Of a stretch of 64,000 nucleotides of DNA, positions 22,009 through 37,049 are shown piece after piece. The translations under genes were made by a program, and so were the position numbers. Positions within the stretch are counted from its first letter, which is position 1. Each line of letters starts with the position of its first letter. The stretch is from an uncultured Actinomycetes bacterium (GTDB taxonomy: Bacteria > Actinomycetota > UBA4738 > HRBIN12): contig CAVRAV010000001.1 in NCBI GenBank assembly GCA_963719165.1, positions 1,433,478 to 1,497,477 of the forward strand, read 5' to 3'. The notes under the pieces were generated by a model. It was not told the origin of the DNA. It saw only the letters and a list, made by a program, of their open reading frames with translations, and did not search any database.

Positions 22009-22059
22009 AGGGACGCCATCGGCGCGTCCCCGGCGCAGCTGTAGGGGGTTTTCGTGTCC

Positions 22060-22293: not shown

Positions 22294-22362
22294 CTGCCGC
22301 TCCCTCTTTCGGCTGGCTACGCTCGCCAGGTCGTGCCCCGGGTCGCCGGCATCCTCGGCGGC

Positions 22363-22899
22363 CTAGCTCTTCGCCTTCCCGCTCAAGATGTCTTTGACCC
22401 TGTCGAAGAAGCCCCCCGTCGCGTCCTTGGCCTTGTCGGTCGCCGGACCAACCGCGTCCTTCGCTTTGAGCGCGGCGTCGCCCGTGGCGCCGAGCGCCTT
22501 GCTCGCGAGACCGCCCGCCGTGTCCACGGCCTTGCTCGTGATCGGGGCCGCCTTGTCCACCAGGCCGCTCGCCGTTCCCTTCGCCTTCTCAACCACGGGC
22601 GCGGCCTTGTCGGCCAAGGTTCCCGCCGCGTCCTTGGCCTTGTCGGCCGCGCTCTGTGCGCCGTCCCCCGTCTTGTCGGTCGCCGCTTGGGCGGCGTCGT
22701 TCGCCTTGTCGGCCGCGCCCTGGGCCGCATCCTTCGCCTTGTCCGCCGCGCCCTGGGTCGCATCGGCGGCCTTGTCGGCCGCGCCCTGGGCGGCGTCCTT
22801 CGCCTTGTCCGCCGCGCCCTGGGTCGCATCGGCGGCCTTGTCCGCCGCGCCCTGGGCGGCGTCCTTCGCCTTGTCGGCGGCGCTCTGTTCGTCGCTCAT
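22363..22899 (-). CDS. LEA-like 11-mer repeat protein (Ala/Lys/Asp amphipathic repeats)
   Basis: Repeats AADKAKDAAQG / AADKAADATQG. The ATG at 22899 (MSDEQSAADKAKD) is chosen over the track start at 22959. Confidence 0.65.
   Translation of the reverse strand: MSDEQSAADKAKDAAQGAADKAADATQGAADKAKDAAQGAADKAADATQGAADKAKDAAQGAADKANDAAQAATDKTGDGAQSAADKAKDAAGTLADKAAPVVEKAKGTASGLVDKAAPITSKAVDTAGGLASKALGATGDAALKAKDAVGPATDKAKDATGGFFDRVKDILSGKAKS
22684..22881 (-). repeat. three near-identical tandem 66-bp coding repeats (22-aa unit) inside the LEA-like gene
   Basis: Visible directly as a repeated GCCTTGTCCGCCGCGCCCTGGGTCGCATCGGCGGCCTTGTCGGCCGCGCCCTGGGCGGCGTCCTTC block. Confidence 0.7.
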
Positions 22900-23068
22900 C
22901 GTTGCTCCTTCACGAGTCGTGGGACCCCCCATCGTTCCGGGACCGGTGGATAACGGCAAACCTGCAGGTCAGGAGGCTAGTTCGAGGGCTCCGAGAGCGC
23001 GGGGATCGAGTGGTTCGCCGAGATGCGCGAAGTTGTCCGCTTATGATCGTTCTGCAACACTTCCGCGC

Positions 23069-24383
23069 ATGGCCAAGGTCACCATCATCGGCGCCGGCAG
23101 CGTCGAGTTCACCCGCAACATCGTGGCGGATCTCGCCTCCTACGAGGAACTGCACGGGACCCTGGAGATCGCGCTTCACGACATCGACGAGGAACGACTC
23201 GCCACGGCCGAACGAGCGGCACGACGTCTCGTCGAGCAGGTGGGCGCCGGGTACGACGTGGCGGCGTTCTTCGACCGTCGCGCCGCCTTCGACGGCGCCG
23301 ACTACCTGATCAACGAGATCCAGGTGGGCGGCTTCGCGGCGACCCTGACAGACTTCGAGGTGCCCAAGACCTACGGCGTGCGGCAGACGATCGCGGACAC
23401 CATCGGGATCGGCGGCATCATGCGCGGGCTCCGGACCATCCCGGTGATGGCGGCGATGGCCGACGACATGGCGGCGCTCTGCCCGCACGGCCTCCTGCTC
23501 AACTACACCAACCCCATGGCGATGGTCCCGTGGGGGATCTGGGCGGGATCGGCGTTCCCCGCCGAGCGCACGATCGGCGTCTGCCACAGCGTGCGCGACA
23601 CGCATCGGTTCCTGGCCGAGACGGTGGGCGTCGCCGAGGAGGATATCTCGTTCATCACCGCAGGCTTCAACCACCAGTGCTTCGTGTACCGGTTCGAAGA
23701 TCGCCACACGGGCGAGGATCTCTACCCCCGCCTGCGGGCGAAGATCGACGCGGACCGAAGAGGGGCTCGGCCGTCGCGTTCGCGTTGAGTTGTTCCGGCG
23801 GTTCGGCTTCTTCCCGACCGAATCCTCCGAGCACTCCGCGGAATACGTCCCATGGCTCCTGCACCACGACGACCAGGTGACGCACTTCCGCAGCGAGATC
23901 GACGAGTACCTGCGACGCAGCGAGGAGAACCTCCGCGAGTTCGACGAGCTTCGAGCCAAGCTCGATACGGGCGAGGAGCTTGAGATCGAGCTCAACAGCG
24001 AGCTTGCGTCCGAGATCGTGCGCGCCGTGGAGTCGGGAGTCGCGCGCGAGGTCTACGGGAACGTGCGCAACGCCGGCCTGATCGAAGGCCTCCCGGAGGA
24101 CGCGTGCGTCGAGGTCCCGTGCGTCGCCGGCAAGAACGGCGTTCTCCCCACCCGCGTGGGGCGTCTGCCGCTCCAGACGCTCGCACTCAACCGCACCTTC
24201 TTGAACGTGGTGGAGCTCACGGTGCACGCGGCGCTGGAACAGCGCCGCGACCTCGTCTACGCCGCCGCGCTCCTGGATCCGAACACGGCGGCGACCCTTG
24301 CCTCGGGCCAGATCGTGGCGATGTGCGACGACCTGATCGCGGCCCACGGCGACCTCATGCCCGAGGGCATCGCCAAGGGCTAG
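23069..24383 (+). pseudogene. glycoside hydrolase family 4 (NAD/Mn-dependent alpha-glucosidase/alpha-galactosidase-like) with an apparent -1/+2 frameshift near 23753-23760
   Basis: N-part MAKVTIIGAGSVEFTRNI...CHSV (23069-23788) and C-part FRRFGFFPTESSEHSAEYVPW... (TTG at 23790 to 24383) are both clearly GH4 but in different frames. Reading the C frame upstream gives ...EEGLGRRVRVELFRRFGFF, so the junction is at gacgcggaccgaagagggg. Confidence 0.6.
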
Positions 24384-25252
24384 CGATCCGCCGCGGCCCG
24401 TTCGCGGATACCGGCGAGGCCCGACGCGACGAACCGATCCTCTCCCGTGTCGAGGCCGTGAGCGACCTCGTGCCAGGGCATGAACAGGAACGAGAAGTGC
24501 GCCCTGCCGTGGAAGCCCGCATCGGGCGGCCCGCCGTACGCGGCGAGGGCGCGTTCCCCGGCGCCGGGGCGCGCGCCGAGGAACCAGGCGAAGTCCCAAG
24601 CGGGATCCCCGATCCCGGCCTCCTCCCAGTCGATCACGCCCGCGAGATCGCCCGACGGGCTCACGAGCACGTGCTCGGGGCCGAGGTCGCCGTGCGTCAC
24701 GCACGTCGCGAAGCGCCAGAGGGCGTCGTCGCCGAGGTAGGCGGCGAAGCTGCTCGCGAACGACGAACGTTCGTCCGGGCGCAGCAACGGGAAGACCCGC
24801 TCGCGCATCATCGCCAGCTCTGCGCGCCGCTCTTCGCGCAGGACCTCCGCCGGCCTGGCGCGCAGCCCCAGGTATTCGGGAGGAACCAGGTGGAGGTCGT
24901 AGAGGAACCGACCCAGCCGTTCGGGCCAGACCCCTTCCTCGCCCGCGTCGGCGACCGAACGTCCTTCGAGCTTGCGGTACCCCATGACCACCGGATCGAG
25001 CGACACGAGCTCGGGTTCGGGCACCGTGCCGCTCACCTCCGCCGCGATCTCCGGGAGCATGTCGATCTGCCCGCGCAGCGTCGCTTCGGCCGCCTCCCCC
25101 AGCGGGAACTGCAGGATCCAAACGTCGTTGACCTCGTACGTGGAGCAGGTCCAGCCCTCGCCGACCGGCGAGAAGGTCGCGATCCTCCCGAGCTCGGGGA
25201 ACCGAGCCTCCGCGAACGCCCGGTGCTCGGCAACGCGCGCCGCCTCGCTCAT
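24380..25252 (-). CDS. phosphotransferase enzyme family protein (APH/choline-kinase-like small-molecule kinase)
   Basis: HGDLGPEHVLV and IDWEEAGIGDPAWDFA (Brenner and DFG-like) motifs. The ATG at 25252 overlaps the upstream MFS stop (ATGA). Confidence 0.75.
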   Translation of the reverse strand: MSEAARVAEHRAFAEARFPELGRIATFSPVGEGWTCSTYEVNDVWILQFPLGEAAEATLRGQIDMLPEIAAEVSGTVPEPELVSLDPVVMGYRKLEGRSVADAGEEGVWPERLGRFLYDLHLVPPEYLGLRARPAEVLREERRAELAMMRERVFPLLRPDERSSFASSFAAYLGDDALWRFATCVTHGDLGPEHVLVSPSGDLAGVIDWEEAGIGDPAWDFAWFLGARPGAGERALAAYGGPPDAGFHGRAHFSFLFMPWHEVAHGLDTGEDRFVASGLAGIRERAAADR

Positions 25253-26490
25253 CCGAGCGGCTCCGGCGGCGAGAACGAGGGATCGGCCGGGACGTCGTCG
25301 GCGCCGGGGCGATCGAGCTCGGGGACGGCGAGCGCGAACCAGGCGACCGCGGCCCCGGCCAGCGCGAGCGCCGAGGCCCCCGTGTACAAGACCACGGGAC
25401 CCGCGTGTTGGTACACGAAGCCGCCGACCCCGGCGCCGAGGATGGGGCCGAGCCCGAACCCTACCGCCTGAGCGATGGAGTTCCCGGTCGAGTAGAGCGA
25501 GGACGGCAGGAGCCGGCCCACCACCACCACGCCGGTCGTGAACAGGAGGCTGAAGGCCAGCCCCTCGAAGACCGACAGCAGCGAGACGATGGTGGGGTCG
25601 TCGATGAGCCCCCATAAGAGGAAGCCCGTCGCGTAGACCAAGGCGCCGAGCACGTAGACCTTGCGCAGGCCGAAGCGTGCGTGCAGCCGGGAGCTGTAAC
25701 GCATCGTCGGGACCTCGATGAGGCCGCCGGCCGCGGTGCCGATCCCCACGAGCAGCGGGCCGCCGCCCTCGCTCACGATCTTGAGCGCGATGAAGTTCCA
25801 CGCGGCGTTGAAGCCGGTCCACACGAGGAACAGCGCCGCGAGGTACCCCCACAGCCGCGGCGCCGCGCGGAAGGCCGCGCCCACGGCGCCGAGCCGCCCG
25901 TCGCCCGAGCTCACGTGACGCGGGAGGTCCCGGCGCACGGTGAAGGACCACGCGAGCACCACGGCGCTCGACATCGAGAAGAACGGCATCGCCCAGCTCA
26001 CTCCCCACGCGCGCAGCAACGCGCCGAACGCGAGGCAGCCGACCGCATAGCTCAGGCTCTCCCAGGCTCGGATGCGGCCGTAGTCCGACATGCGCGCGTC
26101 GCCGAGGTGCTCGAGGGCGATGGCGTCCACGTTGGGTCCGAACGTCACCATGCTCCCGGCCAGCAGGAAGCCCACCACCGCCACCGACATCACGCCGTGG
26201 GCCGTCGTCATGACGAGCGAGAACAGGCACGCCCCCGCCACACCGATCTGCAACGTGGTCCTGCGGCCGAGGGTGGCGTCCGCGAGTTGTCCCCACAGGG
26301 GGTTCAGCAATACCCGCGCGAGCGCCATCGCCGCGATGACGAGGCCGATGTCGCTCCCGCTCAGGCCCTTGCTCTGATCGAGGTAGAGCGCGAGGAACGG
26401 GAAGAACGCGGCGATCACGAACCCCGACGTCAGGAAGAGGCCCTGCACCGCCACCGAGGGCGACGGGCGACGGTCTACGCGCCCACTCAC
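25249..26490 (-). CDS. MFS transporter
   Basis: 12 predicted TM segments. The proposed GTG at 26490 overlaps the amidohydrolase stop (GTGA). The track ORF extends further, to 26823. Confidence 0.8.
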   Translation of the reverse strand: MSGRVDRRPSPSVAVQGLFLTSGFVIAAFFPFLALYLDQSKGLSGSDIGLVIAAMALARVLLNPLWGQLADATLGRRTTLQIGVAGACLFSLVMTTAHGVMSVAVVGFLLAGSMVTFGPNVDAIALEHLGDARMSDYGRIRAWESLSYAVGCLAFGALLRAWGVSWAMPFFSMSSAVVLAWSFTVRRDLPRHVSSGDGRLGAVGAAFRAAPRLWGYLAALFLVWTGFNAAWNFIALKIVSEGGGPLLVGIGTAAGGLIEVPTMRYSSRLHARFGLRKVYVLGALVYATGFLLWGLIDDPTIVSLLSVFEGLAFSLLFTTGVVVVGRLLPSSLYSTGNSIAQAVGFGLGPILGAGVGGFVYQHAGPVVLYTGASALALAGAAVAWFALAVPELDRPGADDVPADPSFSPPEPLG

Positions 26491-27566
26491 CGGCCGAGCC
26501 CCGGCACCAGCCGGAGCGCGTTCTCCGCGTAAACCTTCCGCAGTACTTCGGCAGGCAGGTCGAGTCCCGAGATCGCCCATCGGCCCTGAGGCGGGACGTC
26601 GTCGGACGCGTACGCGAAGTGTTCGTCGTCGGTCTCGAGGAAGCGGAAATGCGTGATGTAGGTCTCCCGGTCCGGGGGGGATGCGTCCGTGCCGAACAGG
26701 ATACGGTCGGGGTGGCGCTCGAAGAGCCGACGAGCGGCGCGCGGCTGGCGACCGAGCTCCGCGATGCGCGCGGCGATGTCGACGTGAAAGTTGGGGTGGG
26801 CGTCGAGCATGCGCGCGACCCACGCCAGATCCTCCACGTACCCGCCGACATGTGCGCCGATGAACGTGGTGCGGGGGTGGCGCGCCACGAGGGATCCCAG
26901 CGCATCCACGATCGTCCGGAACGCCGGGAACCGGCTGCGGTCACCGAACCACCAGTCGGGATGCTCCGCGAGTTCCTCGAGGCGCTCGTTCGTCTCGTCG
27001 AGCGGCTGGAAGAACGCCGCCGGGTCGCCCACGTGGATCAAGACCGGTACCTCGGCCTCGGCCGCCGCGAGCCATAGGGGGTCGAGACGCTCGTCGTCGG
27101 GCATCACCAGAGCGCCGGCCTCATCGCGCACATGCAGGCCGAGGATCTTCCACACTTTCATCCCTCGGGCGCCGCGGTCGACGGCCTCGTGGAGCTGTGC
27201 GGCCATCCGCGACGCGAACGCGCCGCCGCGCGCAGGCTCGTCCCAATCCACCTGGCAGAAGGTGACGAACCGCCCGGGGTGAGCCCGGTCGTACCGCGCG
27301 AGGTTCGCCTCCAGTTCCCCGGCGCGGCCGTCCAGATTCACGATGCTCCGAACGCCGCAGGCGTCCATCAGCTCGACGAGGGCCCCCACGTCGGGCGCGC
27401 CCCAGCCCTCGCTCAGCCACCGTCCGAGGTGGTTGTGCGCGTCCACGACCGGGAACGCCGCCCGCTTCACGCCGTGCGTCGGGAGCTGGAGCGTTGAGCG
27501 CGGGCGATAGTCCCGCAGCGGGAGGTCGCGCAGCCGCTGCGGGAATGACGGGTCGTCGCGATCCAT
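26487..27566 (-). CDS. amidohydrolase family protein (TIM-barrel metal-dependent hydrolase, amidohydrolase-2-like)
   Basis: PVVDAHNHLG metal-binding start, then HVGD and the distal D/H residues. Confidence 0.8.
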   Translation of the reverse strand: MDRDDPSFPQRLRDLPLRDYRPRSTLQLPTHGVKRAAFPVVDAHNHLGRWLSEGWGAPDVGALVELMDACGVRSIVNLDGRAGELEANLARYDRAHPGRFVTFCQVDWDEPARGGAFASRMAAQLHEAVDRGARGMKVWKILGLHVRDEAGALVMPDDERLDPLWLAAAEAEVPVLIHVGDPAAFFQPLDETNERLEELAEHPDWWFGDRSRFPAFRTIVDALGSLVARHPRTTFIGAHVGGYVEDLAWVARMLDAHPNFHVDIAARIAELGRQPRAARRLFERHPDRILFGTDASPPDRETYITHFRFLETDDEHFAYASDDVPPQGRWAISGLDLPAEVLRKVYAENALRLVPGLGR

Positions 27567-27577
27567 CGACGCGGCCC

Positions 27578-28354
27578 TCAGACCGTGGAGACCTCGACCC
27601 CGGCATCGCGCAGGCCGGCCACGCCGCTCGGGTCGGCATCCACGTCGGTGATCAATTCGTGCACGCGGTCGACCCCGCAGATCTGTGCGAACGCCACCCT
27701 GCCGATCTTGGACGAATCCGCCACGACGACCACGCGGCGCGCGCGCTCGATCAGGGCGAGATCGGTGTGCGCCTCCACCTCGTGGTGGGTCGTGAGCCCG
27801 GCCCCGGCGGAGATGCCATCGGTCCCGAGGAAGACCACGTCGAGGTTCAGGCCGGCGAGGGATCGCTCGGCGAGCGGCCCGACGAGCTCATAGGACTCCG
27901 GCCGAGCGTAGCCGCCCGTCACCACGAGTTTCAGGTTCGGCCTGATCGCCAGCTCGCTTGCGATGTTCAGCGCGTTCGTGACCACCGTGAGCCGCTCACG
28001 GTCGATCACGGCGCGCGCGACCTCGGTGGTGGTGGTACCGCCCGTGAGACCGATGGCTCCCCCGTCGGCGACCAGGCGGGCGGCGGCCGACGCGATGCGG
28101 CGCTTCTCGTCTTGGTGCCGCGCGGACTTGTAGCGGAGGGGAAGTTCGTACAGCACGCCCTGGGCGACCGCGCCACCGTGCGTGCGCGCCAAGAGCTTCT
28201 GCTGCTCCAACAGCTCGAGGTCCCGGCGGACGGTGGCCGCGCTCACGCACAGCGTGGCCACGAGCTCCGTGACCCCTACCGTGCCGTCGGCGGAGAGTTC
28301 CTCGAGGATCGCGCTCAGCCGCTCGGCCTGTCGCATGCGCAGGAGTATAGGCAT
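27578..28354 (-). CDS. DeoR/GlpR family transcriptional regulator
   Basis: N-terminal HTH (RLSAILEELSADGTVGVTELVATLCVSAATVRRDL) plus a DeoR C-terminal sugar-phosphate sensor domain. Confidence 0.85.
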   Translation of the reverse strand: MPILLRMRQAERLSAILEELSADGTVGVTELVATLCVSAATVRRDLELLEQQKLLARTHGGAVAQGVLYELPLRYKSARHQDEKRRIASAAARLVADGGAIGLTGGTTTTEVARAVIDRERLTVVTNALNIASELAIRPNLKLVVTGGYARPESYELVGPLAERSLAGLNLDVVFLGTDGISAGAGLTTHHEVEAHTDLALIERARRVVVVADSSKIGRVAFAQICGVDRVHELITDVDADPSGVAGLRDAGVEVSTV

Positions 28355-28464
28355 GCGTGATCGTTCTGGGTTGCGTGGATGCTCGTTCTTGCTCTATCGT
28401 GCGCATTTCCGAGCGTAATCGCGCGAAGGAGCGGTGGGAACCACATGCGAGCGAACGGGACCGA
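28355..28464. promoter_or_regulatory. divergent deoR/SIS promoter region with two copies of a GATCGTTCT-type motif (candidate DeoR operators)
   Basis: GTGATCGTTCTGG at 28366-28378 and GATGCTCGTTCTTG at 28388-28401. The identical 11-mer TGATCGTTCTG recurs at 23044-23054, just upstream of the GH4 start. Confidence 0.4.
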
Positions 28465-29334
28465 ATGAACGACATCGAGCGGGAGATCGCGAGCCAGCCG
28501 TCGAGCTGGACGCGCGCCGCATCGATCACATCGGCCTCGCTGCCCGCTCGGGGAGAACGCGTCATCGCGGCGGGCTGCGGCACGTCGTTGTTCATGGCCC
28601 AGGCGTACGCGGGGCTGCGCGAGTCGCGCGGCCTGGGCGAGACGGATGCGGTTGCGGCCTCGGAGTTTCACACGGGACGCACCTACGATCGCGCGGTGCT
28701 CATCTCGCGCAGCGGCACCACCACCGAGATGGCGAGGCTCGCCGAGGACCTGCGCGGGAACACGCCCACGGTGGCGCTCTGCGCGGTGTCCGATGCCCCG
28801 GTCCCCGAGGCGTCCGCCGAGTTCATCTCCCTGGCGTTCGCGGACGAGCGCTCCGTCGTTCAGACGCGCTTCGCGACCACCGCGCTCGCCCTGCTGCGGG
28901 CGCACCTGGGCGAGGACCTCGGGCCGGCCGTCGCGGACGCCGAGCGAGCCCTCGCGGCGCCGCTCCCCGTCGACGTCGACGGGCTCGATCACTTCGTGTT
29001 CCTGGGGCACGGATGGACGAACGGACTCGCCAACGAGGCTGCGCTGAAGCTCCGAGAGGCGGCCCAGGCGCACACGGAGTCCTACCCGGCCATGGAGTAC
29101 CGACACGGTCCCATCAGCCTCGTGGGATCCCACAGCCTGGTGTGGCTCCTCGGCACGCCCGACCCGACGGTGGCCGCCGACGTGCGCGCCGCCGGGGCCT
29201 CGGTGCGCGAGGCCGAGCTCGATCCCATGGCCGAACTCATCCTGATCCAACGCGTGGCGGTGGCGCTGGCCGCGGCCCGCGGGCTCGACCCGGACCATCC
29301 TCGCAACCTGACCCGATCGGTGGTGCTCTCGTGA
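28465..29334 (+). CDS. double-SIS domain sugar-phosphate isomerase/deaminase/deglycase (AgaS / FrlB / GlmS-C-like)
   Basis: IAAGCGTSLFMAQ...LISRSGTTTE (first SIS) and FVFLGHGWTNGLANEAALKLRE (second SIS). The ATG at 28465 is internal to the track ORF. Confidence 0.8.
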   Translation: MNDIEREIASQPSSWTRAASITSASLPARGERVIAAGCGTSLFMAQAYAGLRESRGLGETDAVAASEFHTGRTYDRAVLISRSGTTTEMARLAEDLRGNTPTVALCAVSDAPVPEASAEFISLAFADERSVVQTRFATTALALLRAHLGEDLGPAVADAERALAAPLPVDVDGLDHFVFLGHGWTNGLANEAALKLREAAQAHTESYPAMEYRHGPISLVGSHSLVWLLGTPDPTVAADVRAAGASVREAELDPMAELILIQRVAVALAAARGLDPDHPRNLTRSVVLS

Positions 29335-29360
29335 CCGCCCCGAAGACCTGGAGGTTCTCG

Positions 29361-30686
29361 ATGAAGCGCACGGTGTTCGCCCTCTTCGCAACGTTCGCGG
29401 TGCTCGCGGCGGCATGCACGAGCGGGGGCTCCGACCAGCCGTCAGGCGGCGCTTCGGCGGGTCCCACCGAGATCACGTTGTGGCACGGGTACGGCATCGC
29501 CGGCAAGCCTTTGCCCGGCGGCGTCGTGAACTACGAGGCCAAGTCGATGGACGACCTGATCACGGAGTTCAACTCGACGCATCCGGACATCAAGGTGAAC
29601 AACGTCTACTGCTGCACCAACGACAAGGCGCTCGACAAGCTCACCGTGGCGCTCCAGGGCGGCCAGCAGCCGGACATCACCTACCAGTACGGGACTTCGC
29701 TCCCGCAGATCGCGAACGCCCCCAACGTCATGGACCTCACCGACCGCGTCACCGACCCCGCCTTCGGATGGGACGACTTCTTCCCCGGCGCCCGGGAATC
29801 CTCCACGGTGGACGGTCGTGTGCTCGGCGTCCCGGCCCTCATCGACGACCTCGCCATCGTCTACAACAAGAAGCTCTTCGCGGACGCGGGCATCGCCGAG
29901 CCGACGGTGGACTGGACCTGGGACGACTTCCGAGCGGCCGCGAAGGCGCTCACCGACCCGGCCCAGAAGCGGTTCGGCTGGGCGTTCCCGATCGATGCGT
30001 CGGAGGACACCACGTGGCACTTCGACGCCATGTTGTGGGAGGCCGGAGGGGACATCCTCAACGCGGACAACACGCAGGCGGTCTTCAACCAGGCGCCCGG
30101 CGTGACCGCCCTCGCGATGCTGCGCGACATGGCGGTCACGGACAAGAGCGTGTACCTCGACCCGCAGAACACCGGCAAGATCGACGACCTCTTCAACACC
30201 GGGTCGATCGGCATGCTCGTCACGGGGCCGTGGGCGCTCTCGGCCTATCCCGACGTCAACTACGGCGTGCAGATCATGCCCTCGTTCCCGGGTGGGAACC
30301 ACCAAACGATCAGCGGCCCGGACATGTGGGTGCTCTTCGACAACGGGCAGCAGCGCGCGGATGCGTCCTGGGAGTTCATCAGCTGGTTGACCCAGAAGCA
30401 GCAGATCCAACAGGACGCCATGACGTCGGGTCACCTGCCCACCAAGGCCTCTGTGCTGAAGATCCCCGGCTTCACCAAGGCGTTCAACGACAAGTACCCC
30501 GGCAACGGCTTGTTCGCGGAGAACCTGAACAACGTACTGAAGGCGCGACCCGTGCTGGCCTCCTACGACCAGATCTCCCGTGCCATGGCGGACGCGGTCG
30601 TCTCCGTGCTGATCGACGACAAGGATCCCCAACAGGCGCTGAACGACGCGGCTCAACAGGTGAACGACATCCTGGCTTCGTCCTAG
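29361..30686 (+). CDS. ABC transporter substrate-binding lipoprotein (family-1 sugar-binding)
   Basis: Lipobox LAAACTSGG. Typical carbohydrate SBP length and motifs. Confidence 0.85.
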   Translation: MKRTVFALFATFAVLAAACTSGGSDQPSGGASAGPTEITLWHGYGIAGKPLPGGVVNYEAKSMDDLITEFNSTHPDIKVNNVYCCTNDKALDKLTVALQGGQQPDITYQYGTSLPQIANAPNVMDLTDRVTDPAFGWDDFFPGARESSTVDGRVLGVPALIDDLAIVYNKKLFADAGIAEPTVDWTWDDFRAAAKALTDPAQKRFGWAFPIDASEDTTWHFDAMLWEAGGDILNADNTQAVFNQAPGVTALAMLRDMAVTDKSVYLDPQNTGKIDDLFNTGSIGMLVTGPWALSAYPDVNYGVQIMPSFPGGNHQTISGPDMWVLFDNGQQRADASWEFISWLTQKQQIQQDAMTSGHLPTKASVLKIPGFTKAFNDKYPGNGLFAENLNNVLKARPVLASYDQISRAMADAVVSVLIDDKDPQQALNDAAQQVNDILASS

Positions 30687-30713
30687 GCGGGTCGGCGGAG
30701 GAAGGAGCGGACG

Positions 30714-31613
30714 ATCGGGACCTTCCGGCGGTTCCTGGCGTCCGACCACGCGGCGGGATGGGCGTTCATCCTGCCGTCGGTCGTGTTGATCTTGCTGTTC
30801 GCCCTGTTCCCGATCGGCTGGGGATTCGTGCTGTCGTTCCAGAAGGCCTCGCTGCTGAACCCCGTGCGCCCATTCGTGGGCACGGAGAACTACCAGAAGC
30901 TGTTCACGGACCCCTTCGTCAAGAAGGCCGTGACGAACACGCTGATCTACACGGCGCTGTTCGTCCCGAGCTCGCTGATCCTCGCGCTCGGCGTGGCCTC
31001 CGCCCTGAACCGCAGGATCCGGTTCATCCGCTTCTACCGCCTCGCCGTGTTCGTGCCCGTGGTCGCGTCGACGATCGCCACCGGGATCATGTTCCTGTGG
31101 CTCTTGGACAAGGACTTCGGCCTCGCGAACTGGGCGCTCGGCAAGGTCGGCCTCGGACCGTTCGGGTTCTTCTCCTCGCCGTCACAGGCGCTGCCCTCGC
31201 TCGTCGTGATGACGGTGTGGGGTTGGCTGGGGTTCGACACGATCGTGTACCTCGCGGCGCTCCAGGGCGTCCCTGCCGAGCTCTTGGAGGCCGCGGCCAT
31301 CGACGGAGCGGGCCGCTGGAGCACGTTTCGCAACGTGACGCTCCCGCTGCTCGGGCCGGCCTCGCTCCTGCTCATCGTGTGGTCGACGATCTCCGCGCTC
31401 CAGCTGTTCGACGAGGTGTATTTCGTGACCAAAGGGGGGCCGCTGCACGCGACCGACGTCGTCGTGTACCGGATCTTCATCATGGCCTTCCAGAGCGGAC
31501 TGCCGCTCGCCGGACGAGGTGCGGCGCTCGCGTACCTGCTGTTCGTGGCCATCTTCGTGCTCACGCTGGGCCAGTTCTGGATGGGCAACCGGGTGGTGCA
31601 CTACCAGGCATGA
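30714..31613 (+). CDS. ABC transporter permease (MalF/UgpA-type)
   Basis: EAAxIDGA permease signature. The frame is open from 30687 after a GGAGGAAGGAG Shine-Dalgarno. The first canonical start is GTG at 30783, but this would cut off the cytoplasmic N-tail and TM1, so the start is uncertain (ATC at 30714 or CTG). Confidence 0.75.
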   Translation: MGTFRRFLASDHAAGWAFILPSVVLILLFALFPIGWGFVLSFQKASLLNPVRPFVGTENYQKLFTDPFVKKAVTNTLIYTALFVPSSLILALGVASALNRRIRFIRFYRLAVFVPVVASTIATGIMFLWLLDKDFGLANWALGKVGLGPFGFFSSPSQALPSLVVMTVWGWLGFDTIVYLAALQGVPAELLEAAAIDGAGRWSTFRNVTLPLLGPASLLLIVWSTISALQLFDEVYFVTKGGPLHATDVVVYRIFIMAFQSGLPLAGRGAALAYLLFVAIFVLTLGQFWMGNRVVHYQA

Positions 31614-32494
31614 GCGCCACGGCGATCGATCCACGCACCCTCCCCGGCGAGACCGGGATGGTGGAGCCGCGTCGCCTCGCGTGGCTCCCGTTCAGCCCGT
31701 GGCACCTCCTGCTGTTCCCCATGGCGTTGGTGATGCTCGTGCCCCTCGTGTGGATGGTGGTGACGTCCCTGGAGACCCTGAGCCAGACGCGCCACTTCCC
31801 GCCGATCCTGTGGCCGGGCTCGTTCCAGTGGTCGAACTACCCGGCCGCGCTGCGCTCCGCTCCGTTCGGCAGGTGGTTCTGGAACACCACCGTCGTGACG
31901 TGCGTGGTGGTTGCGAGCAACTTGCTGCTGTGCTCACTGGCCGCCTACGCCTTCGCGCGCATGGAGTTCCTCGGCAAGAAGGTCGTGTACTTCCTGCTGC
32001 TGGCCACGCTGATGGTACCCCTGCAGGTGATCTTGATCCCGACGTTCCTGATCGTGAAGCAACTCGGCCTGGTCAACCACCTCGGGGCGCTGATCGTGCC
32101 GAACCTCGCGAACGTCTTCGGCATCTTCATGCTCACGCAGTTCTTCCGGACCCTTCCCATCGAGCTAGAGGAGGCCGCGCGGATCGACGGCGCCGGGCGG
32201 CTCAAGATCTTCTTCACCATCGTGGTGCCGTTGTCCACCGCGGCGCTCGCGACGCTCGCCGTGATCCAGTTCATGTGGACCTGGAACGACTTCCTGTGGC
32301 CGCTCGTGACGATCTTCAATGAGCAGGCCTACACGCTGCAGCTCGGGTTGCAGAGCTTCCAGGGGTCGCACACCACCGAGTGGAACCTGCTGATGGCCGG
32401 CAACGTGATGAGCATGATCCCGATGCTCGTGCTCTTCGTGGCGGCGCAACGTTGGTTCGTGCGCGGGATCGCGACCCAGGGCCTGAAGGGATGA
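31610..32494 (+). CDS. ABC transporter permease (MalG/UgpE-type)
   Basis: EAARIDGAGRLKIF signature. The ATG overlaps the upstream stop (ATGA). Confidence 0.85.
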   Translation: MSATAIDPRTLPGETGMVEPRRLAWLPFSPWHLLLFPMALVMLVPLVWMVVTSLETLSQTRHFPPILWPGSFQWSNYPAALRSAPFGRWFWNTTVVTCVVVASNLLLCSLAAYAFARMEFLGKKVVYFLLLATLMVPLQVILIPTFLIVKQLGLVNHLGALIVPNLANVFGIFMLTQFFRTLPIELEEAARIDGAGRLKIFFTIVVPLSTAALATLAVIQFMWTWNDFLWPLVTIFNEQAYTLQLGLQSFQGSHTTEWNLLMAGNVMSMIPMLVLFVAAQRWFVRGIATQGLKG

Positions 32495-32524
32495 CGCGCC
32501 GATGAGGACGCGAGGGACGGCGCC

Positions 32525-33649
32525 GTGGCGAACGTAGCGTTCGAGCACGTGAACAAGGTCTATCCCGGACCCACCGTGGCCGTGGAGGACCTCACGCTCG
32601 AGGTCGGCGATGGGGAGTTCCTGATCCTGGTCGGACCCTCAGGCTGCGGCAAGTCCACGGCACTCCGCATGGTCGCCGGCTTGGAGAAGATCTCGAGTGG
32701 AACCGTCTACGTAGACGGCCGCTCGATCAACGACGTGCCCCCCAAAGACCGCGACATCGCGATGGTGTTCCAGAACTACGCCCTCTACCCGCACATGACG
32801 GTGGAGCGGAACCTCGCTTTCGGACTGCGGCAGCGTAAGACCCCGCGCGCCGAGGTCGCTCGACGGGTCGGCGAGGTGAGCGCCACACTCGGGCTCGAGG
32901 AGTTGATGAAGCGCCGGCCCGGCCAGCTCTCGGGTGGGCAGCGCCAGCGTGTCGCGATGGGCCGAGCCCTCGTGCGCGAGCCGAAAGCGTTCCTGCTCGA
33001 CGAACCATTGTCCAACCTCGACGCGAAGCTCCGGGTTCAGATGCGGGCCGAGCTGAAGAAGCTGCACCACCGGCTGGGCATCACCACGATCTACGTCACG
33101 CACGATCAGGTCGAGGCGATGACCCTCGGCGAGCGCATCGCGGTCATGAGCGCGGGACGGTTGCAGCAGATCGGCGTTCCCCAAGACGTCTACGACCGGC
33201 CGGGCAACGTGTTCGTAGCGGGCTTCATCGGCTCCCCTCCGATGAACCTGTTCCAGGGTGCGGCGACCGAGGGCGTCGTGCAGGTGGGGTCGTTCGCGTT
33301 CGAGCGTTCAGGCGTGCGGGACGGCCCGGTCACCGTGGGCGTGCGGCCGGAGGCCTTCCACCCGGCCGCCGCAGACGCCGACGGGCGACCGCGGATCGAG
33401 GCGCTGATCGATGTCGTGGAACCCCTGGGCGACGAGGTCCTGGTGCACGGGACCGTCGATGCTCGTGCGGCGCAGAGCGGCGCCGAGGAGGAGGACGCGA
33501 TGCTGCTCGCCGACACCGGCACCCGGGCTGCGGTGACGGTGCGGCTGGATCCGGGCATGCGACCCGAGCCGGGGGACCGCATGCCGCTCGTGGCCGAGCC
33601 CTCCGCCATCCACCTCTTCGATGTGGAACACGGCGATCGCCTGGGCTGA
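32525..33649 (+). CDS. ABC transporter ATP-binding protein (MalK/MsiK-like)
   Basis: GPSGCGKST Walker A, LSGGQRQRVA signature, and a TOBE C-domain. Confidence 0.9.
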   Translation: MANVAFEHVNKVYPGPTVAVEDLTLEVGDGEFLILVGPSGCGKSTALRMVAGLEKISSGTVYVDGRSINDVPPKDRDIAMVFQNYALYPHMTVERNLAFGLRQRKTPRAEVARRVGEVSATLGLEELMKRRPGQLSGGQRQRVAMGRALVREPKAFLLDEPLSNLDAKLRVQMRAELKKLHHRLGITTIYVTHDQVEAMTLGERIAVMSAGRLQQIGVPQDVYDRPGNVFVAGFIGSPPMNLFQGAATEGVVQVGSFAFERSGVRDGPVTVGVRPEAFHPAAADADGRPRIEALIDVVEPLGDEVLVHGTVDARAAQSGAEEEDAMLLADTGTRAAVTVRLDPGMRPEPGDRMPLVAEPSAIHLFDVEHGDRLG

Positions 33650-33657
33650 TCGTCGCG

Positions 33658-34161
33658 CTAGAGGTCAAGGTACATGCTCAGGGTGAGGACATCGGATCCC
33701 TCCCGGAGCGGCTCGCGATCGTCCTCGTCGAGGGTGAACCCGGCCGATCCGTAGAGGCGACGCGCCGCCGTGTTCCCCTCGGCGATGCGAAGGACCACGC
33801 GCGATGCGCCGCGTTCACGCGCCCAGCCCACCACCGCCTCGACGAGGGCGCGGCCGAGACCGTTCCCCCTCGCCCGGGGTGCCACCCACATCGCGAAGAG
33901 GTTCGCCGCGAGCGGGTCCTCCCCGAAGATCGCGCCGGTGGCGAGGCCGGTGAACGCCGCGTCCGGAACGGGCTCGATCACGAACGTCACGAGGTCCGCT
34001 CCCCACCCCTCCCCCGTGGCCCAGCCTTCCCACCGCCATCGCGGCTGCCCTTCGGTGGCCTCGAGCGTGGACGCGAACGCGTCGGGTGCGTCGCGCAGGG
34101 CGGACAGACGGACGTCCCGCAATCGCTCCCAATCCTGCGGGAGGGCCGCGCGCAGCGTCAC
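33658..34161 (-). CDS. GNAT family N-acetyltransferase
   Basis: VAPRARGNGLGRALV acetyl-CoA motif. The GTG at 34161 overlaps the upstream stop (GTGA). Confidence 0.7.
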   Translation of the reverse strand: MTLRAALPQDWERLRDVRLSALRDAPDAFASTLEATEGQPRWRWEGWATGEGWGADLVTFVIEPVPDAAFTGLATGAIFGEDPLAANLFAMWVAPRARGNGLGRALVEAVVGWARERGASRVVLRIAEGNTAARRLYGSAGFTLDEDDREPLREGSDVLTLSMYLDL

Positions 34162-35153
34162 GAGATGACCCGGACCTCGGCCCGTGCGGCCAGGGCCTCG
34201 GCGCGACCCCGATCCAGACGCCCGGCACCCGGTACCTCGGCGTTCGCGGTAGCGGCCCCCAGCGCGAGCCTGAGCGCACGTGCCCAATCGGCGTCGAGTC
34301 CGGCGGCGAGTCCGGCGGCGAGTCCGGCGTCGAGTCCGGCGGCGAGCCCGGCGTCGAGTCCGACGGCGAGCCCGGCGAGGAAGGCGTCGCCGCTTCCCAC
34401 CGGGTAGCGTCCTCGCACGTAGAGCGTTCCCTCGAAGAGCGTTCCGTCGGGAGTGATGACGACGACGCCGTCCGCCCCGCGCGTGACGATGCCGGCATGG
34501 CCCTCGCCGCCCGCGAGGGCGCGCAACTTCTGCGCCGCCGCGAGCGCGTCGTCGCGGTGCGCGGTGGGAACACCGAGCAACTCGCTCGCTTCGGCGGCGT
34601 TCACCTTCACGACGTCCGGCTCGGCCTCGAGGGCAAGGCGGAGCCGGTCGCCCTCCGAGTCGAGCGCCACCCGCACGCCTGCGGCGCGGGCCTCGGCGAC
34701 AACCGAGCGGTACCCGTCGCCCGGGGTGCCCCGCGGCGTCGATCCGCTGATCGTGAGCCATCCGCCGGGAACCCATGCGTTCGCGGCGGCGTCGACGAGC
34801 TCCACCCACGCGGCCTCCGGAACCTCCGACCCATGCTCGTAGAACTCCGTGAGCCCTCCCGTCTCCCGATCTGCCACGCTCAGCGACGACCGGTTCTCGC
34901 CATGGGTCCACACGCACTCGCACGGGACCCCTTCTGCGCTCAACATGTCCGTGAGCCACTGGCCCGTGTGCCCACGCATCAGGGCGACCGCCCGGACCTC
35001 GGCACCCAAGGCGCTCGCGGCCCGCGCCACGTTCAGCCCCTTGCCGCCCGCGACATCCACGAAGCCCGTCGGACGGTGGATGGCTCCGCGCACCAACCGG
35101 TCGATCTCGAACAGCTTGTCGACCGACGGGTTCGCCGCGAGGCAGACGATCAC
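34158..35153 (-). CDS. 1-phosphofructokinase family hexose-phosphate kinase (FruK/LacC/tagatose-6-P kinase-like, PfkB superfamily)
   Basis: N-terminal IVCLAANPSVDKLFEIDRLVRGAIHR and C-terminal GSGDAF. The ATG overlaps the upstream stop (ATGA). Confidence 0.8.
   Translation of the reverse strand: MIVCLAANPSVDKLFEIDRLVRGAIHRPTGFVDVAGGKGLNVARAASALGAEVRAVALMRGHTGQWLTDMLSAEGVPCECVWTHGENRSSLSVADRETGGLTEFYEHGSEVPEAAWVELVDAAANAWVPGGWLTISGSTPRGTPGDGYRSVVAEARAAGVRVALDSEGDRLRLALEAEPDVVKVNAAEASELLGVPTAHRDDALAAAQKLRALAGGEGHAGIVTRGADGVVVITPDGTLFEGTLYVRGRYPVGSGDAFLAGLAVGLDAGLAAGLDAGLAAGLAAGLDADWARALRLALGAATANAEVPGAGRLDRGRAEALAARAEVRVIS
34291..34378 (-). repeat. in-frame tandem 12-nt coding repeat (GAGTCCGGCGGC/GAGTCCGGCGTC, ~7 units) encoding (AGLD/AGLA)n in the kinase
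   Basis: Visible directly. The protein reads GLAVGLDAGLAAGLDAGLAAGLAAGLDAD. Confidence 0.7.
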
Positions 35154-36088
35154 GCGGCGGATCCTCGCTCGAGCGTTTCGAGGACTTCATCCATGGACGG
35201 CTGCCCTTCGGTGCCGCCCGGGGTGCGTGTCGAGAGCACGCCGCAGGCGTTGCCGATCTCCAAGCAGCGCCGCAGCGGCATGTCGGCGAGCCACGCGGCC
35301 AGGAAGGCGGCGTCGAACGAATCACCCGCTCCGGTCGTGTCGAGGACGCGGCCCGGCATCGCGCGGACGACCGCCGTCTCACCCGTCGTGGATGCCATCG
35401 CGCCGTCCGGCCCTCGCTTCACTACGACCATCGATGCCATAGCGCGCAGCCGCCCCATGGCGTCGTTGAGATCGGAGATGTGCGCGATGCTCATCGCCTC
35501 CATCGCGTTGGGCAGGAACACGTCGACCCGCGGGAGCAGCGCGTTCAACCCGGCGTCCCATCCGCCGTCGGGATCCCAGTTCGGATCCAACGATGTGCTT
35601 CCGCCGCTCGCGTGCACGGCGTCGAAGATCTCTGGGAGATCCGGCTGGAGCGCCCGCTGGAGGAAGTACGAGCTGACGTGGACGTGGCGAGCGGACGCCA
35701 ACAGCTCCGGGTCGATGAGCTCGGCACGGAGGTCCGCCGCGGTGCCGATCGCCGTGAGCATGGCCCGGTCGCCGGGGAGCGAGAAGACCACGGTGAGCCC
35801 CGACGGCCGCACGGGGTCCGTGATCAGCCCGCGGGTGTTCACGCCGTGGCGCGTGAGCTCCTCGCGGAGGTACCGGCCGAAGAGGTCGTCGCCGACCACC
35901 CCGCAGATCGCCACGCGCAGGCCCAGTCTCGCGGCACCGCAAGCGAGGATGGCCCCGGAGCCTCCCACGGTGAGGGTGGCCTCCTCGACGATGCGCTCGG
36001 CCTGACCGAACGCGGGCACGACCTCGCCGCCGCGCAGCACCAGATCCGGGTTCGCGTCGCCCAGAACCAGCAGGTCGAAATCCACCAC
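35150..36088 (-). CDS. PfkB family carbohydrate kinase (ribokinase/fructokinase/ketohexokinase-like)
   Basis: Two-glycine motif and C-terminal TTGAGDSF. GTG start at 36088. Confidence 0.8.
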   Translation of the reverse strand: MVDFDLLVLGDANPDLVLRGGEVVPAFGQAERIVEEATLTVGGSGAILACGAARLGLRVAICGVVGDDLFGRYLREELTRHGVNTRGLITDPVRPSGLTVVFSLPGDRAMLTAIGTAADLRAELIDPELLASARHVHVSSYFLQRALQPDLPEIFDAVHASGGSTSLDPNWDPDGGWDAGLNALLPRVDVFLPNAMEAMSIAHISDLNDAMGRLRAMASMVVVKRGPDGAMASTTGETAVVRAMPGRVLDTTGAGDSFDAAFLAAWLADMPLRRCLEIGNACGVLSTRTPGGTEGQPSMDEVLETLERGSAA

Positions 36089-36175
36089 GTTCCGAGCCTA
36101 CCCGCGAGATCCGTTCAGCGGCAGAGGCAGACGGGCATGGATCATGCGTTGGGCATCCGTCGCTACCATCGACGG

Positions 36176-37042: not shown

Positions 37043-37049
37043 GCACTCC

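Follow-up and report, generated by a model that had tools for sequence, protein, structure and literature searches.

Introduction

Which carbohydrate does a soil actinobacterium take up and break down with a gene cluster in which a glycosidase of glycoside hydrolase family 4 (GH4), a sugar ATP-binding cassette (ABC) importer, a double-SIS phosphosugar enzyme and two PfkB-type kinases are gathered around a DeoR-family regulator? The cluster lies at positions 23069-36088 of a 64,000-nucleotide stretch of an uncultured Actinomycetes bacterium (contig CAVRAV010000001.1), hereafter the window, and an original prediction made from the same letters had offered two answers, the use of Amadori compounds in the manner of the frl genes or that of galactosamine and tagatose-6-phosphate in the manner of the aga genes. 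Our comparison with related loci makes us lean, by a modest degree, towards a DeoR/AgaR-type-controlled system for the uptake and catabolism of alpha-linked galactosamine (GalN)/galactose (Gal) oligosaccharides via tagatose-6-phosphate (tagatose-6-P).

The functions, substrates and route steps discussed here are all drawn from homology and gene context. Genes were called from third-position GC and reading frame, the former being used because the whole window has ~70% G+C, and domains were named with Pfam and NCBIfam scans. The comparison set comprised 80 genomic and 80 metagenomic related loci; the genomic loci were centred on homologues of the double-SIS protein (55-71% identical), their genes were called and their proteins clustered.

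A conserved chromosomal cluster

All the genes listed for the region by the original prediction are present according to the domain scans and frame analysis, although a one-base frameshift near 23756 breaks the GH4 gene in two. The limits of the region match gene ends exactly, 23069 being the start codon of the GH4 gene and 36088 that of a ribokinase-like PfkB kinase (PfkB2), and the genes form four transcription units (Table 1). The gene set and order are identical in a 92%-identical relative (GCA_038249195.1, here L081). This grouping exceeds chance, and its core turns up again in dozens of loci from genomes and metagenomes. That the “island”, as the region had been called, might be mobile was considered and rejected: the flanking genes are housekeeping ones (Mfd, GlmU, MetRS, PMT mannosyltransferase and similar), the GC content is uniform and the entire 21 kb are syntenic with L081. 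The locus is a chromosomal, regulator-controlled catabolic cluster for sugar utilisation. An Rfam search of positions 20000-39000 detected no RNA family.

Related loci suggest a route through amino sugars and tagatose phosphates

The neighbourhoods of the related loci are of two main types. Type A, found in Streptomyces, Kitasatospora, Longispora, Kutzneria and others, has a DeoR gene on one strand divergent from genes for the SIS enzyme, a ROK kinase, a NagA-like deacetylase, a 1-phosphofructokinase (PFK)-like kinase and a class II ketose-bisphosphate aldolase (<DeoR >SIS >ROK kinase >NagA-like deacetylase >PFK-like kinase >aldolase). The full arrangement occurs in 14 of the 80 genomic loci, with shorter forms elsewhere, and a class II aldolase gene lies next to or near the SIS gene in ~37 of the 80. 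On the NCBIfam models the type A aldolase passes TIGR00167, GatY and class II Fba scoring equally, and the NagA-like protein passes TIGR00221. Type A would thus follow the logic of the aga pathway, since it joins a SIS enzyme to an amino-sugar deacetylase, a dedicated kinase and an aldolase. In that logic an N-acetylhexosamine would be phosphorylated at position 6, deacetylated, and deaminated and isomerised to a ketose-6-phosphate, which a second phosphorylation would turn into a ketose-1,6-bisphosphate, the precursor of triose phosphates. Tagatose phosphates appear more plausible than fructose phosphates as intermediates because kinase and aldolase are private to the locus, while cells, as is well established, already have enzymes for fructose phosphates.

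Type B, to which the window belongs, is carried by distant lineages, among them uncultured Actinomycetes metagenome-assembled genomes (MAGs), Solirubrobacterales and Trebonia (for instance the cultured T. kvetii 15TR583, L045), and has as its core GH4, DeoR, SIS, a substrate-binding protein (SBP), two permeases, usually an ATPase, the PFK-like kinase and PfkB2. In Trebonia-type loci (<GH114 <GH4 >SBP >P1 >P2 >SIS >PFK >aldolase >DeoR >PfkB2, with P1 and P2 the permeases) the genes from SBP to PfkB2, aldolase included, form one operon. Genes for an APH-family kinase, a major facilitator superfamily (MFS) transporter and a PF04909 hydrolase, which the window also has, are restricted to a closer MAG clade. 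An aldolase gene occurs in 14 of 29 sister GH4 loci. In addition, in many MAG loci the interval from the MFS gene to GH4 holds a gene for a DUF2090 protein (L010:5234-6100, with equivalents in L001, L004, L006, L011, L012, L014, L025 and L052), which is missing from the window. This protein weakly resembles the aldolase portion of IolC, a bifunctional kinase/aldolase, as well as a LacD-like tagatose-1,6-diphosphate aldolase model, and the stand-alone form is a candidate tagatose-bisphosphate aldolase.

Two protein clusters found beside type B loci belong to family GH114 (PF03537, E 4e-68 and 5e-31) and have signal-peptide-like N-termini. By tblastn, 12 of the 29 GH4-type loci have a GH114 gene no more than 10 kb away, compared with 1 of the 54 remaining loci (Fisher p = 5e-6). 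Because the loci are related, this p-value overstates their independence, yet the association takes at least four distinct arrangements, with GH114 beside PfkB2, beside GH4, in a GH4-GH114 pair, or inside the ABC-kinase operon (L027). The lone exception without GH4, L050 of Streptomyces diacarni, has the order SIS-aldolase-DeoR-GH114-like. For an independent test, metagenome contigs were scanned with the GH4 protein alignment. The resulting 38 contigs of at least 8 kb carried genes for the SBP (25), DeoR (24), SIS (23), the PFK-like kinase (14), the class II aldolase (13) and PfkB2 (10), and in 8 of them the gene that follows GH4 on its own strand is GH114, while in 2 more GH114 lies no further than ~1 kb from GH4. 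GH114 enzymes, among them the endo-alpha-1,4-polygalactosaminidases of Pseudomonas sp. 881 and Aspergillus (Ega3), cleave fungal galactosaminogalactan and related polymers within their stretches of alpha-1,4-linked galactosamine, Pel being a similar bacterial polymer (PMC12054363). As recurrent neighbours or operon partners in sister genomes, such enzymes would generate the substrate that we propose.

A further secreted-looking protein, of 822 aa, is encoded next to SIS-ROK-PFK-aldolase loci of Kitasatospora (L032:4903-7371; similar in L038 and L046). Four ricin-B lectin repeats were recognised in it, and searches of Pfam and the PDB matched nothing in its N-terminal 690 aa; the protein could be a glycosidase, so far unrecognised, that acts on glycans of Gal or N-acetylgalactosamine (GalNAc).

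A MelA-type GH4 glycosidase

The GH4 gene of the window occupies two frames, as open reading frames (ORFs) 23069-23788 and 23790-24383. Compared with the intact 437-aa orthologue of L081 (L081:4716-6029), it has one extra base at ~23756, the sole one-base gap of the alignment, and removal of base 23756 restores the full 437-aa ORF. The restored protein is 95.9% identical to that of L081, and 49 of the codon differences between the two genes are synonymous and 18 non-synonymous, a ratio similar to that of neighbouring genes, which shows purifying selection apart from the single frameshift. The frameshift is either a recent inactivation or an assembly error, as only a single base is affected and the rest of the gene is under purifying selection.

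MelA, the enzyme of the E. coli melibiose operon, is a GH4 alpha-galactosidase dependent on NAD+ and Mn2+. The window GH4 is 41-44% identical to it over the full length and shares its IIGAGS nucleotide-binding motif and the CHSV motif, of which C172, H173, S174 and V175 are invariant across the GH4 family alignment; the intact L081 protein passes the NCBIfam alpha-galactosidase model NF011657 (528.6 bits, cut-off 486). Given this identity, the CHSV motif and the passed model, the enzyme is probably of the non-phospho, alpha-galacto type. It differs from MelA in its company, being linked to amino-sugar/tagatose genes and to GH114 instead of a melibiose permease, and it could act on alpha-GalN or alpha-Gal in fragments of galactosaminogalactan.

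The same kinship raises the question of whether the locus might serve plain alpha-galactosides of the melibiose, raffinose or galactinol type, with no amino sugar involved. GH4 would then release galactose, PfkB2 would form Gal-6-phosphate, the SIS enzyme would be a Gal-6-phosphate/tagatose-6-P isomerase, and the PFK-like kinase and an aldolase would follow. The MelA-like sequence and passed model speak for this, as do an importer of the CUT1 oligosaccharide type, the lack of a NagA/AgaA deacetylase gene in the window and the former annotation, in PDB entry names, of AgaS-like SIS proteins as tagatose-6-P ketose/aldose isomerases. Three points make it improbable nonetheless. SIS orthologues 55-60% identical to that of the window adjoin the NagA-like deacetylase and ROK kinase, which argues for the phosphate of an N-acetyl-amino sugar; the recurrent glycosidase neighbours are GH114 galactosaminidases and not raffinose-type enzymes; and actinobacteria normally route galactose through the Leloir pathway.

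Beside GH4 or the cluster, and sometimes without a SIS gene, we also observed a recurrent triplet of a glucose-1-dehydrogenase-like short-chain dehydrogenase/reductase, a metallo-beta-lactamase-fold hydrolase resembling the UlaG lactonase and a Zn-dependent dehydrogenase (L016:5972-6724 and 15179-17019; L007, L017, L020, L023, L052, L056; metagenomic L091, L093, L094). This triplet, absent from the window, may form an alternative oxidative branch for the released sugar.

The double-SIS enzyme

The start of the SIS gene is confirmed by more than 100 homologues of ~290 aa, and the family is large: the protein collection yields no fewer than 8,000 homologues at E<=1e-10. The best PDB matches are isomerase domains of GlmD, NagB-II and GlmS (2cb0, 2dec, 1j5x, 8eol), and on a profile built from the family the E. 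coli references GlmS, AgaS and FrlB reach 83, 37 and 22 (21.8) bits, FrlB being the lowest of the three. The enzyme retains the catalytic Glu488 and His504 of GlmS as well as its Lys485, together with an S-R-S-G-T-T phosphate loop, and the position of GlmS Lys603 is Arg in all family members examined. The original prediction had taken a clustering with GlmS-type amidotransferase domains as evidence against itself. The protein is indeed closest to the isomerase half of GlmS, but it aligns with GlmS residues 289-608 only and is hence no GlmS, as it has 289 aa, no glutaminase (GATase-2) domain and Arg at the Lys603 position. By BLAST it aligns with E. coli AgaS over 83 aa (E 4e-6). It reaches 68 bits on the GlmD model (cut-off 580) and 45 on that of NagB-II (cut-off 430), and as the models for AgaS, GlmD and NagB-II are all failed widely, it forms a separate family within the GlmS-isomerase superfamily. 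Its genomic context leads us to predict a galactosamine-6-phosphate (GalN-6-P) deaminase/isomerase, a functional analogue of AgaS.

NagS (SCO4393) is a recently described SIS protein to which the enzyme might be likened: a GlcNAc-6-phosphate dehydratase of the MurQ-related single-SIS type, encoded within a 796-bp fragment in nagS-dmdR1 synteny (PMC12680351). We rejected this identity, since the enzyme of the window is of the double-SIS GlmS-isomerase type, longer and in another synteny; no NagS was found among its PDB matches.

Because its closest solved or curated relatives are GlmS isomerase domains, archaeal GlmD and NagB-II, the enzyme could instead act in the catabolism of glucosamine (GlcN), chitosan oligomers or N-acetylglucosamine, as a GlmD/NagB-II-type GlcN-6-phosphate deaminase that yields fructose-6-phosphate, with the PFK-like kinase, which scores nearly equally on PfkB (Pfk-2) and FruK, as an extra 6-phosphofructokinase. 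Like the GlmD/NagB-II enzymes of the Pyrococcus/Thermococcus chitin pathway and of Shewanella (SO3506), it is a double-SIS protein without glutaminase and with the catalytic Glu and His; it is shorter than they are, lies far below both cut-offs and has partners that suggest a galacto substrate and tagatose-6-P. A pathway that stops at fructose-6-phosphate could do without a kinase and an aldolase of its own, whereas no partners of the SIS gene are better conserved than these two, and the sole linked glycosidases, the MelA-type GH4 and GH114, are alpha-galacto-specific, without a beta-glucosaminidase or chitosanase. We therefore regard a GlcN-type pathway as quite unlikely.

Two kinases of the PfkB family

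The first kinase belongs to the 1-PFK/LacC/PfkB subfamily. It scores 91-103 bits on LacC equivalogs (cut-offs 410-469), its family profile gives 217 bits for FruK and 199 for PfkB, and its gene adjoins those of the SIS enzyme and class II aldolase in many loci. We predict from this that it is a tagatose-6-P kinase. The succession of a LacC-like kinase and a tagatose-bisphosphate aldolase, the latter represented by DUF2090 in some sister loci, recalls the LacABCD tagatose-6-P pathway of Gram-positive bacteria, from which the present system differs in that entry would be through a SIS enzyme and not the RpiB-type isomerase LacAB, and uptake through an ABC importer and not the phosphotransferase system (PTS).

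PfkB2 matches no NCBIfam equivalog; its best models are those of IolC, ribokinase and tagatose kinase, and its best PDB matches are ribokinases. Its gene is limited to GH4-type loci (21-23 genomic, 15 metagenomic). Our working guess is a kinase for the free sugar, namely a galactosamine 6-kinase.

A motif shared by two promoter regions

AgaR is the top NCBIfam match of the DeoR protein (206.5 bits, cut-off 260), which is 36.5% identical to E. coli AgaR over 249 aa, that is, full length. The deoR start at 28336 is backed by a TATACT box 7 nt upstream, conserved in many loci, and this spacing suggests a leaderless deoR transcript; the GH4 mRNA may be leaderless as well, the GH4 ATG lying 6 nt past an ACACTT box.

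Exactly two copies of the 11-mer TGATCGTTCTG exist in the window: one precedes the GH4 start by 15 nt, and the other is in the deoR/SIS spacer, where TGCTCGTTCTT follows 22 nt after it as a second copy. In the 29 type B loci, sites of the more general form TGNNCGTTC are about five-fold denser in intergenic (0.99/kb) than in coding sequence (0.20/kb); of the intergenic sites, DeoR/SIS spacers hold 22 and the sequences preceding GH4 hold 19, and these often come in pairs or inverted and overlap -35/-10-like boxes. As the TGNNCGTTC pattern was derived from these very sites, the chance estimate of the search tool is no test, and conservation across loci is what serves as one. We interpret the repeats as predicted operators for the DeoR protein. 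Owing to the motif shared by their promoters, GH4, the deoR-AH2-MFS-APH operon (AH2 being the PF04909 hydrolase) and the SIS-ABC operon look like one regulon.

Accessory enzymes

The deoR operon ends with genes for a hydrolase, a transporter and a kinase. The PF04909 hydrolase, whose gene is next to deoR in 16-18 related loci, has no NCBIfam match and no PDB sequence match. Its family alignment has invariant H44, H46, H178, H239 and D294, the metal ligands of the amidohydrolase superfamily, and a Foldseek comparison of its AlphaFold2 model (pLDDT, the predicted local distance difference test, 83.5) with the PDB found ACMSD/IDCase/dihydroxybenzoate decarboxylases and uncharacterised amidohydrolases at a TM-score of ~0.5. 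A NagA/AgaA-type deacetylase was rejected for this protein, which is of PF04909 and the ACMSD/LigI-type group, so that the amidohydrolase loses the AgaA-like role that the original prediction had given it. The MFS transporter, of 413 aa as in L081, matches an NCBIfam sugar efflux transporter model far under its cut-off. APH orthologues occur in 13-17 related loci, with the MFS gene adjacent every time; in the window the APH start overlaps the MFS stop by 4 nt. The best PDB matches of APH are APH(2'')-IIIa entries (E 3e-20). The window's N-acetyltransferase of the GNAT family (GNAT), encoded in the kinase operon, recurs in only 5 related loci, a different GNAT being present elsewhere in 6 others. 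Our guesses for the GNAT, the PF04909 hydrolase and the MFS transporter are acetylation or deacetylation of GalN/GalNAc, or export.

We considered APH and GNAT as aminoglycoside-resistance genes and rejected this on their scores, all far under the cut-offs of resistance models: the best for APH is APH(2'')-IIIa, at 59 bits against 625, and the GNAT reaches 26-30 bits on aminoglycoside and streptothricin acetyltransferase models with cut-offs of 300-420. The same genes bear on a more sceptical view, in which there is no single system but a sugar importer and kinase module that adjoins, by chance, a glycosidase gene in decay and three genes of drug-resistance type unrelated to it (APH, GNAT, MFS). 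This view draws on the resemblance of APH to APH(2'') aminoglycoside kinases, the weak acetyltransferase matches of the GNAT, an efflux-pump-like MFS protein, the restricted distribution of GNAT and of APH/MFS/AH2, and the frameshift in GH4. We find it improbable: from overlaps or gaps of at most 11 nt, APH, MFS and AH2 appear to be co-transcribed with deoR; in sister loci an APH-MFS-DUF2090 operon diverges from GH4 across a spacer with paired operator-like sites; the resistance scores are far too low; and GH4 is under purifying selection apart from its one frameshift.

Relation to known pathways

In the canonical aga pathway (PMC5583593, PMC4694137), the components in E. coli, Shewanella and streptococci are AgaR, AgaS, AgaA, a tagatose-6-P kinase and KbaY/KbaZ. 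The present locus shares with it a DeoR-family repressor, a double-SIS protein in the position of the deaminase/isomerase, a hexose-phosphate kinase of the PfkB type and, where sister loci are concerned, a class II aldolase resembling GatY/KbaY. The window has no AgaA-type deacetylase, as is also the case in the “GalN-only” aga variants described without AgaA (PMC5583593). It differs from aga in a SIS protein of another family (~290 aa, closer to the GlmS/GlmD isomerase type), in uptake by an ABC importer and not the PTS, and in the lack of an aldolase in this copy of the cluster. AgaA/NagA-type deacetylases separate GalNAc use from GalN use. Because uptake is through an ABC importer instead of the PTS, a separate cytoplasmic kinase would be needed, and because the core includes the GH4 glycosidase, the substrate would be an oligosaccharide. 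The system would work like the aga pathway but is no strict member of it, given the failed AgaS test, the ABC importer in place of the PTS, GH4 in the core, and neither aldolase nor AgaA in this copy. The aga-like alternative of the original prediction is supported, mostly by findings not available to it, namely the AgaR-like regulator, the contexts of the SIS operon, the MelA-type GH4 and the GH114 neighbours; its link from the amidohydrolase to AgaA is wrong.

The frl-like alternative, in which the SIS enzyme would be a fructosamine-6-phosphate deglycase, PfkB2 a fructosamine 6-kinase and the ABC importer a carrier of glycated amino acids, is very improbable and was abandoned, for although the SIS-SBP-permease-permease order that had been noted is confirmed on the plus strand (28465, 29361, 30714, 31610) and corresponds to the deglycase-SBP-permease-permease order of B. 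subtilis frlBONM, a PfkB-family kinase is encoded nearby as in E. coli frlABCD-R and B. subtilis frlBONMD-R, FrlD is the nearest to PfkB2 of the E. coli references compared (27% identity; profile 87 bits), a DAO-family oxidase gene is syntenic nearby and the SIS family bears the JGI auto-annotation “FrlB-like”, that label is a COG-level name, the SIS enzyme has no BLAST match to E. coli FrlB at E<1e-3 and its profile scores FrlB lowest, PfkB2 reaches 59.9 bits on the FrlD model NF007321 (cut-off 247) and more on its IolC, ribokinase and tagatose-kinase models, the regulator is of the DeoR/AgaR and not the GntR (FrlR) type, and Amadori catabolism has no use for GH4, GH114, the PFK-like kinase or the ketose-bisphosphate aldolase.

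A proposed route and the evidence against it

For the route that we favour, alpha-1,4-GalN (± Gal, GalNAc) oligomers are the best candidate substrate, because the glycosidase, the endo-enzyme and the downstream chemistry all suggest galacto-configured sugars. GH114 endo-galactosaminidases, encoded in sister loci, would release alpha-1,4-galactosamine/galactose oligomers from fungal galactosaminogalactan or bacterial Pel. The lipoprotein SBP, the two permeases and the MalK-type ATPase would import the oligosaccharide (step 1), from which the cytoplasmic NAD/Mn-type GH4 would exo-cleave alpha-galactosyl or alpha-galactosaminyl residues (step 2). PfkB2, and perhaps also the APH-type kinase, would phosphorylate the galactosamine (step 3), and the double-SIS enzyme would convert GalN-6-P into tagatose-6-P and ammonia (step 4). 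The 1-PFK/LacC-like kinase would then form tagatose-1,6-bisphosphate (step 5), to be cleaved by an aldolase (step 6), which in sister loci would be the class II GatY/KbaY-like enzyme or DUF2090 and here would be encoded elsewhere or be the housekeeping Fba, since the window has none. The DeoR protein would repress GH4 and the divergent deoR-AH2-MFS-APH and SIS-ABC promoters through TGNNCGTTC as long as no sugar phosphate has accumulated. Such chemistry is known; unfamiliar are the enzyme families in these roles and the likely polymer source.

Several observations weigh against this reading. Some concern the completeness of the copy: tblastn of the whole 64-kb window with aldolase (class II and DUF2090), GH114, ROK kinase and NagA-like queries gave no matches, L081 also has no aldolase, and GH4 carries its frameshift. 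The window copy is a less complete, possibly damaged example of the locus type. Others concern specificity. The SIS enzyme scores 34.1 bits on the AgaS model TIGR02815 (cut-off 529.2) and is by sequence nearer to the GlmS/GlmD type, so that a specificity for GlcN-6-phosphate is possible. MelA-type GH4 enzymes are, to our knowledge, alpha-galactosidases and not galactosaminidases, and GH4 may remove galactose only; we likewise know of no precedent for a galactosamine kinase of the PfkB family. The closest solved SBPs in the PDB are alpha-glucan-type binders or uncharacterised and of low similarity, and hence uninformative as to the ligand. The regulatory link, too, is partial. Of the co-regulation that the original prediction had asked about, the shared operator-like motif is seen at GH4 and at the SIS-ABC/DeoR units, but upstream of the PfkB2-PFK-GNAT operon there is no convincing one, the window showing no more than a degenerate GAACG core there and L081 not even that; the functional link of this operon rests on conserved synteny and on its fusion into the SIS operon in other lineages. 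Finally, the literature that we searched, with incomplete coverage, describes no bacterial pathway downstream of GH114, nor this locus type, nor a PfkB or APH galactosamine kinase.

In view of both sides, an aga-like amino-sugar/tagatose-6-P pathway, leaving the polymer aside, seems to us reasonably probable, while for galactosaminogalactan or Pel as the specific polymer source the chances appear slightly below even.

Transporter genes and other features of the window

The top PDB match of the SBP is an uncharacterised sugar SBP (7bvt, E 1e-36), and SBP orthologues occur in GH114-bearing loci. The first permease gene has no ATG, GTG or TTG at the position where its orthologues start (positions 30687-30790). 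The L008 orthologue has its ATG where the window has an in-frame ATC (30714), and the GGAGGAAGGAG before this ATC resembles a ribosome-binding site; the in-frame sequence before GTG 30783 aligns with orthologue N-termini, and L081 has the same ATC, which suggests a genuine non-canonical ATC start codon.

Table 1. Transcription units, genes and putative control elements of the cluster, in coordinates of the window
Feature	Position	Strand	Basis and remarks
Unit 1: GH4	23069-24383	+	single gene
Unit 2: deoR, Amidohydro_2, MFS, APH	28336-27578, 27566-26487, 26490-25249, 25252-24380	-	gaps <=11 nt or 4-nt overlaps
Unit 3: SIS, SBP, two permeases, ATPase	28465-29334, 29361-30686, permease ends 31613 and 32494, 32525-33649	+	
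Unit 4: PfkB2, 1-PFK-subfamily kinase, GNAT	36088-35150, 35153-34158, 34161-33658	-	successive GTGA overlaps
Putative GH4 promoter	23033-23062	+	-35-like TTGTCC (23033), operator-like TGATCGTTCTG (23044-23054), -10-like ACACTT (23057)
GH4 glycosidase, MelA-type alpha-galactosidase	23069-24383	+	Pfam Glyco_hydro_4 and Glyco_hydro_4C, split over two ORFs
APH-family small-molecule kinase, nearest APH(2'') type	24380-25252	-	Pfam APH, 101 bits; last gene of the deoR operon
MFS transporter, MFS_1_like/sugar-efflux-like, 413 aa	25249-26490	-	Pfam MFS_1_like, 152 bits
Amidohydro_2 (PF04909) metal-dependent TIM-barrel hydrolase	26487-27566	-	Pfam, 86.7 bits
DeoR-family repressor, AgaR-like	27578-28336	-	Pfam HTH_DeoR and DeoRC
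Divergent deoR/SIS control region	28337-28464	.	deoR -10 AGTATA (28344-28349, minus-strand reading)
Operator-like repeats in the deoR/SIS spacer	TGATCGTTCTG 28358-28368; TGCTCGTTCTT 28380-28390		layout conserved in orthologous spacers
Putative SIS-operon promoter boxes	28371 (-35 TTGCGT); 28395 (-10 TATCGT)	+	sequence reading
Double-SIS phosphosugar isomerase/deaminase, 289 aa	28465-29334	+	Pfam SIS, two stretches
Lipoprotein SBP of CUT1-type sugar ABC importer	29361-30686	+	Pfam SBP_bac_1 and SBP_bac_8; lipobox LAAAC
ABC permease 1	30714-31613	+	Pfam BPD_transp_1; probable ATC start 30714, first canonical start GTG 30783
ABC permease 2	31610-32494	+	Pfam BPD_transp_1; UgpE/MalG similarity
ABC ATPase, MalK/UgpC/MsiK type	32525-33649	+	Pfam ABC_tran and TOBE_2; NCBIfam UgpC subfamily, 463 (cut-off 432)
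GNAT N-acetyltransferase	33658-34161	-	Pfam Acetyltransf_1; accessory, translationally coupled to the upstream kinase
1-PFK/LacC/PfkB-subfamily hexose-phosphate kinase	34158-35153	-	NCBIfam TIGR03168, 207.9 bits (cut-off 216.4)
PfkB2, ribokinase-like PfkB kinase	35150-36088	-	Pfam PfkB, 174 bits

Four further observations concern genes around the cluster. Upstream of it, positions 20298-21515 (plus strand) encode the DAO-family flavin adenine dinucleotide (FAD) oxidase mentioned above, with weak matches to ThiO and sarcosine oxidase beta; the gene is syntenic in 12-16 related loci, and neither an operator-like motif nor an operon link to the cluster was seen for it. Fructosyl-amine oxidases belong to the DAO superfamily. 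Divergent from the kinase operon, positions 36137-37042 (plus strand) encode a Macro domain resembling O-acetyl-ADP-ribose deacetylases fused to a rhodanese; in sister loci the two are separate adjacent genes (e.g. L010:19405-20285), and the pair is syntenic in ~11 loci with no evident functional link. A protein with a NAGPA (phosphodiester glycosidase) domain is encoded at 40724-42151 (minus strand), with a pyridoxal phosphate-dependent aminotransferase gene nearby (38610-39917), neither of them conserved with the cluster. The ARAGORN call “tRNA-???” at 48393-48479 (plus strand) is in all likelihood false; it has a two-base anticodon and overlaps the 3' end of a P-type ATPase gene (48447-51206, minus strand).

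Significance

Among the adhesive polymers in biofilms of Aspergillus and many bacteria, galactosaminogalactan and Pel are major ones, and the enzymes of families GH114, GH135 and GH166 that cut such polymers are studied as anti-biofilm tools. In the literature searched we found nothing on how soil bacteria consume the products of these enzymes. For annotation, the lesson is that the order of SIS, SBP and permease genes is not diagnostic of Amadori catabolism.

We think it possible, although doubtful, that the locus family represents an undescribed bacterial route for the assimilation of alpha-1,4-galactosaminide polymers after their cleavage by GH114. Such a route would entail a new GH4 specificity, that of an exo-alpha-galactosaminidase, a galactosamine kinase of the PfkB type and a new family of GalN-6-P deaminases, the 290-aa double-SIS proteins, as a non-orthologous replacement of AgaS across Actinomycetota. 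It would also imply APH- and GNAT-type enzymes that act catabolically on polycationic amino-sugar oligomers and are a plausible natural reservoir for aminoglycoside-modifying enzymes.

More generally, if the proposed uptake and catabolism of galactosamine/galactose oligosaccharides holds, a widespread actinobacterial locus would supply the missing pathway downstream of GH114. The large SIS family would gain a function and its “FrlB-like” label would be corrected, the substrate ranges of GH4 and PfkB enzymes would be extended, and the locus would provide candidate binding proteins and enzymes to detect or degrade galactosaminogalactan and Pel.

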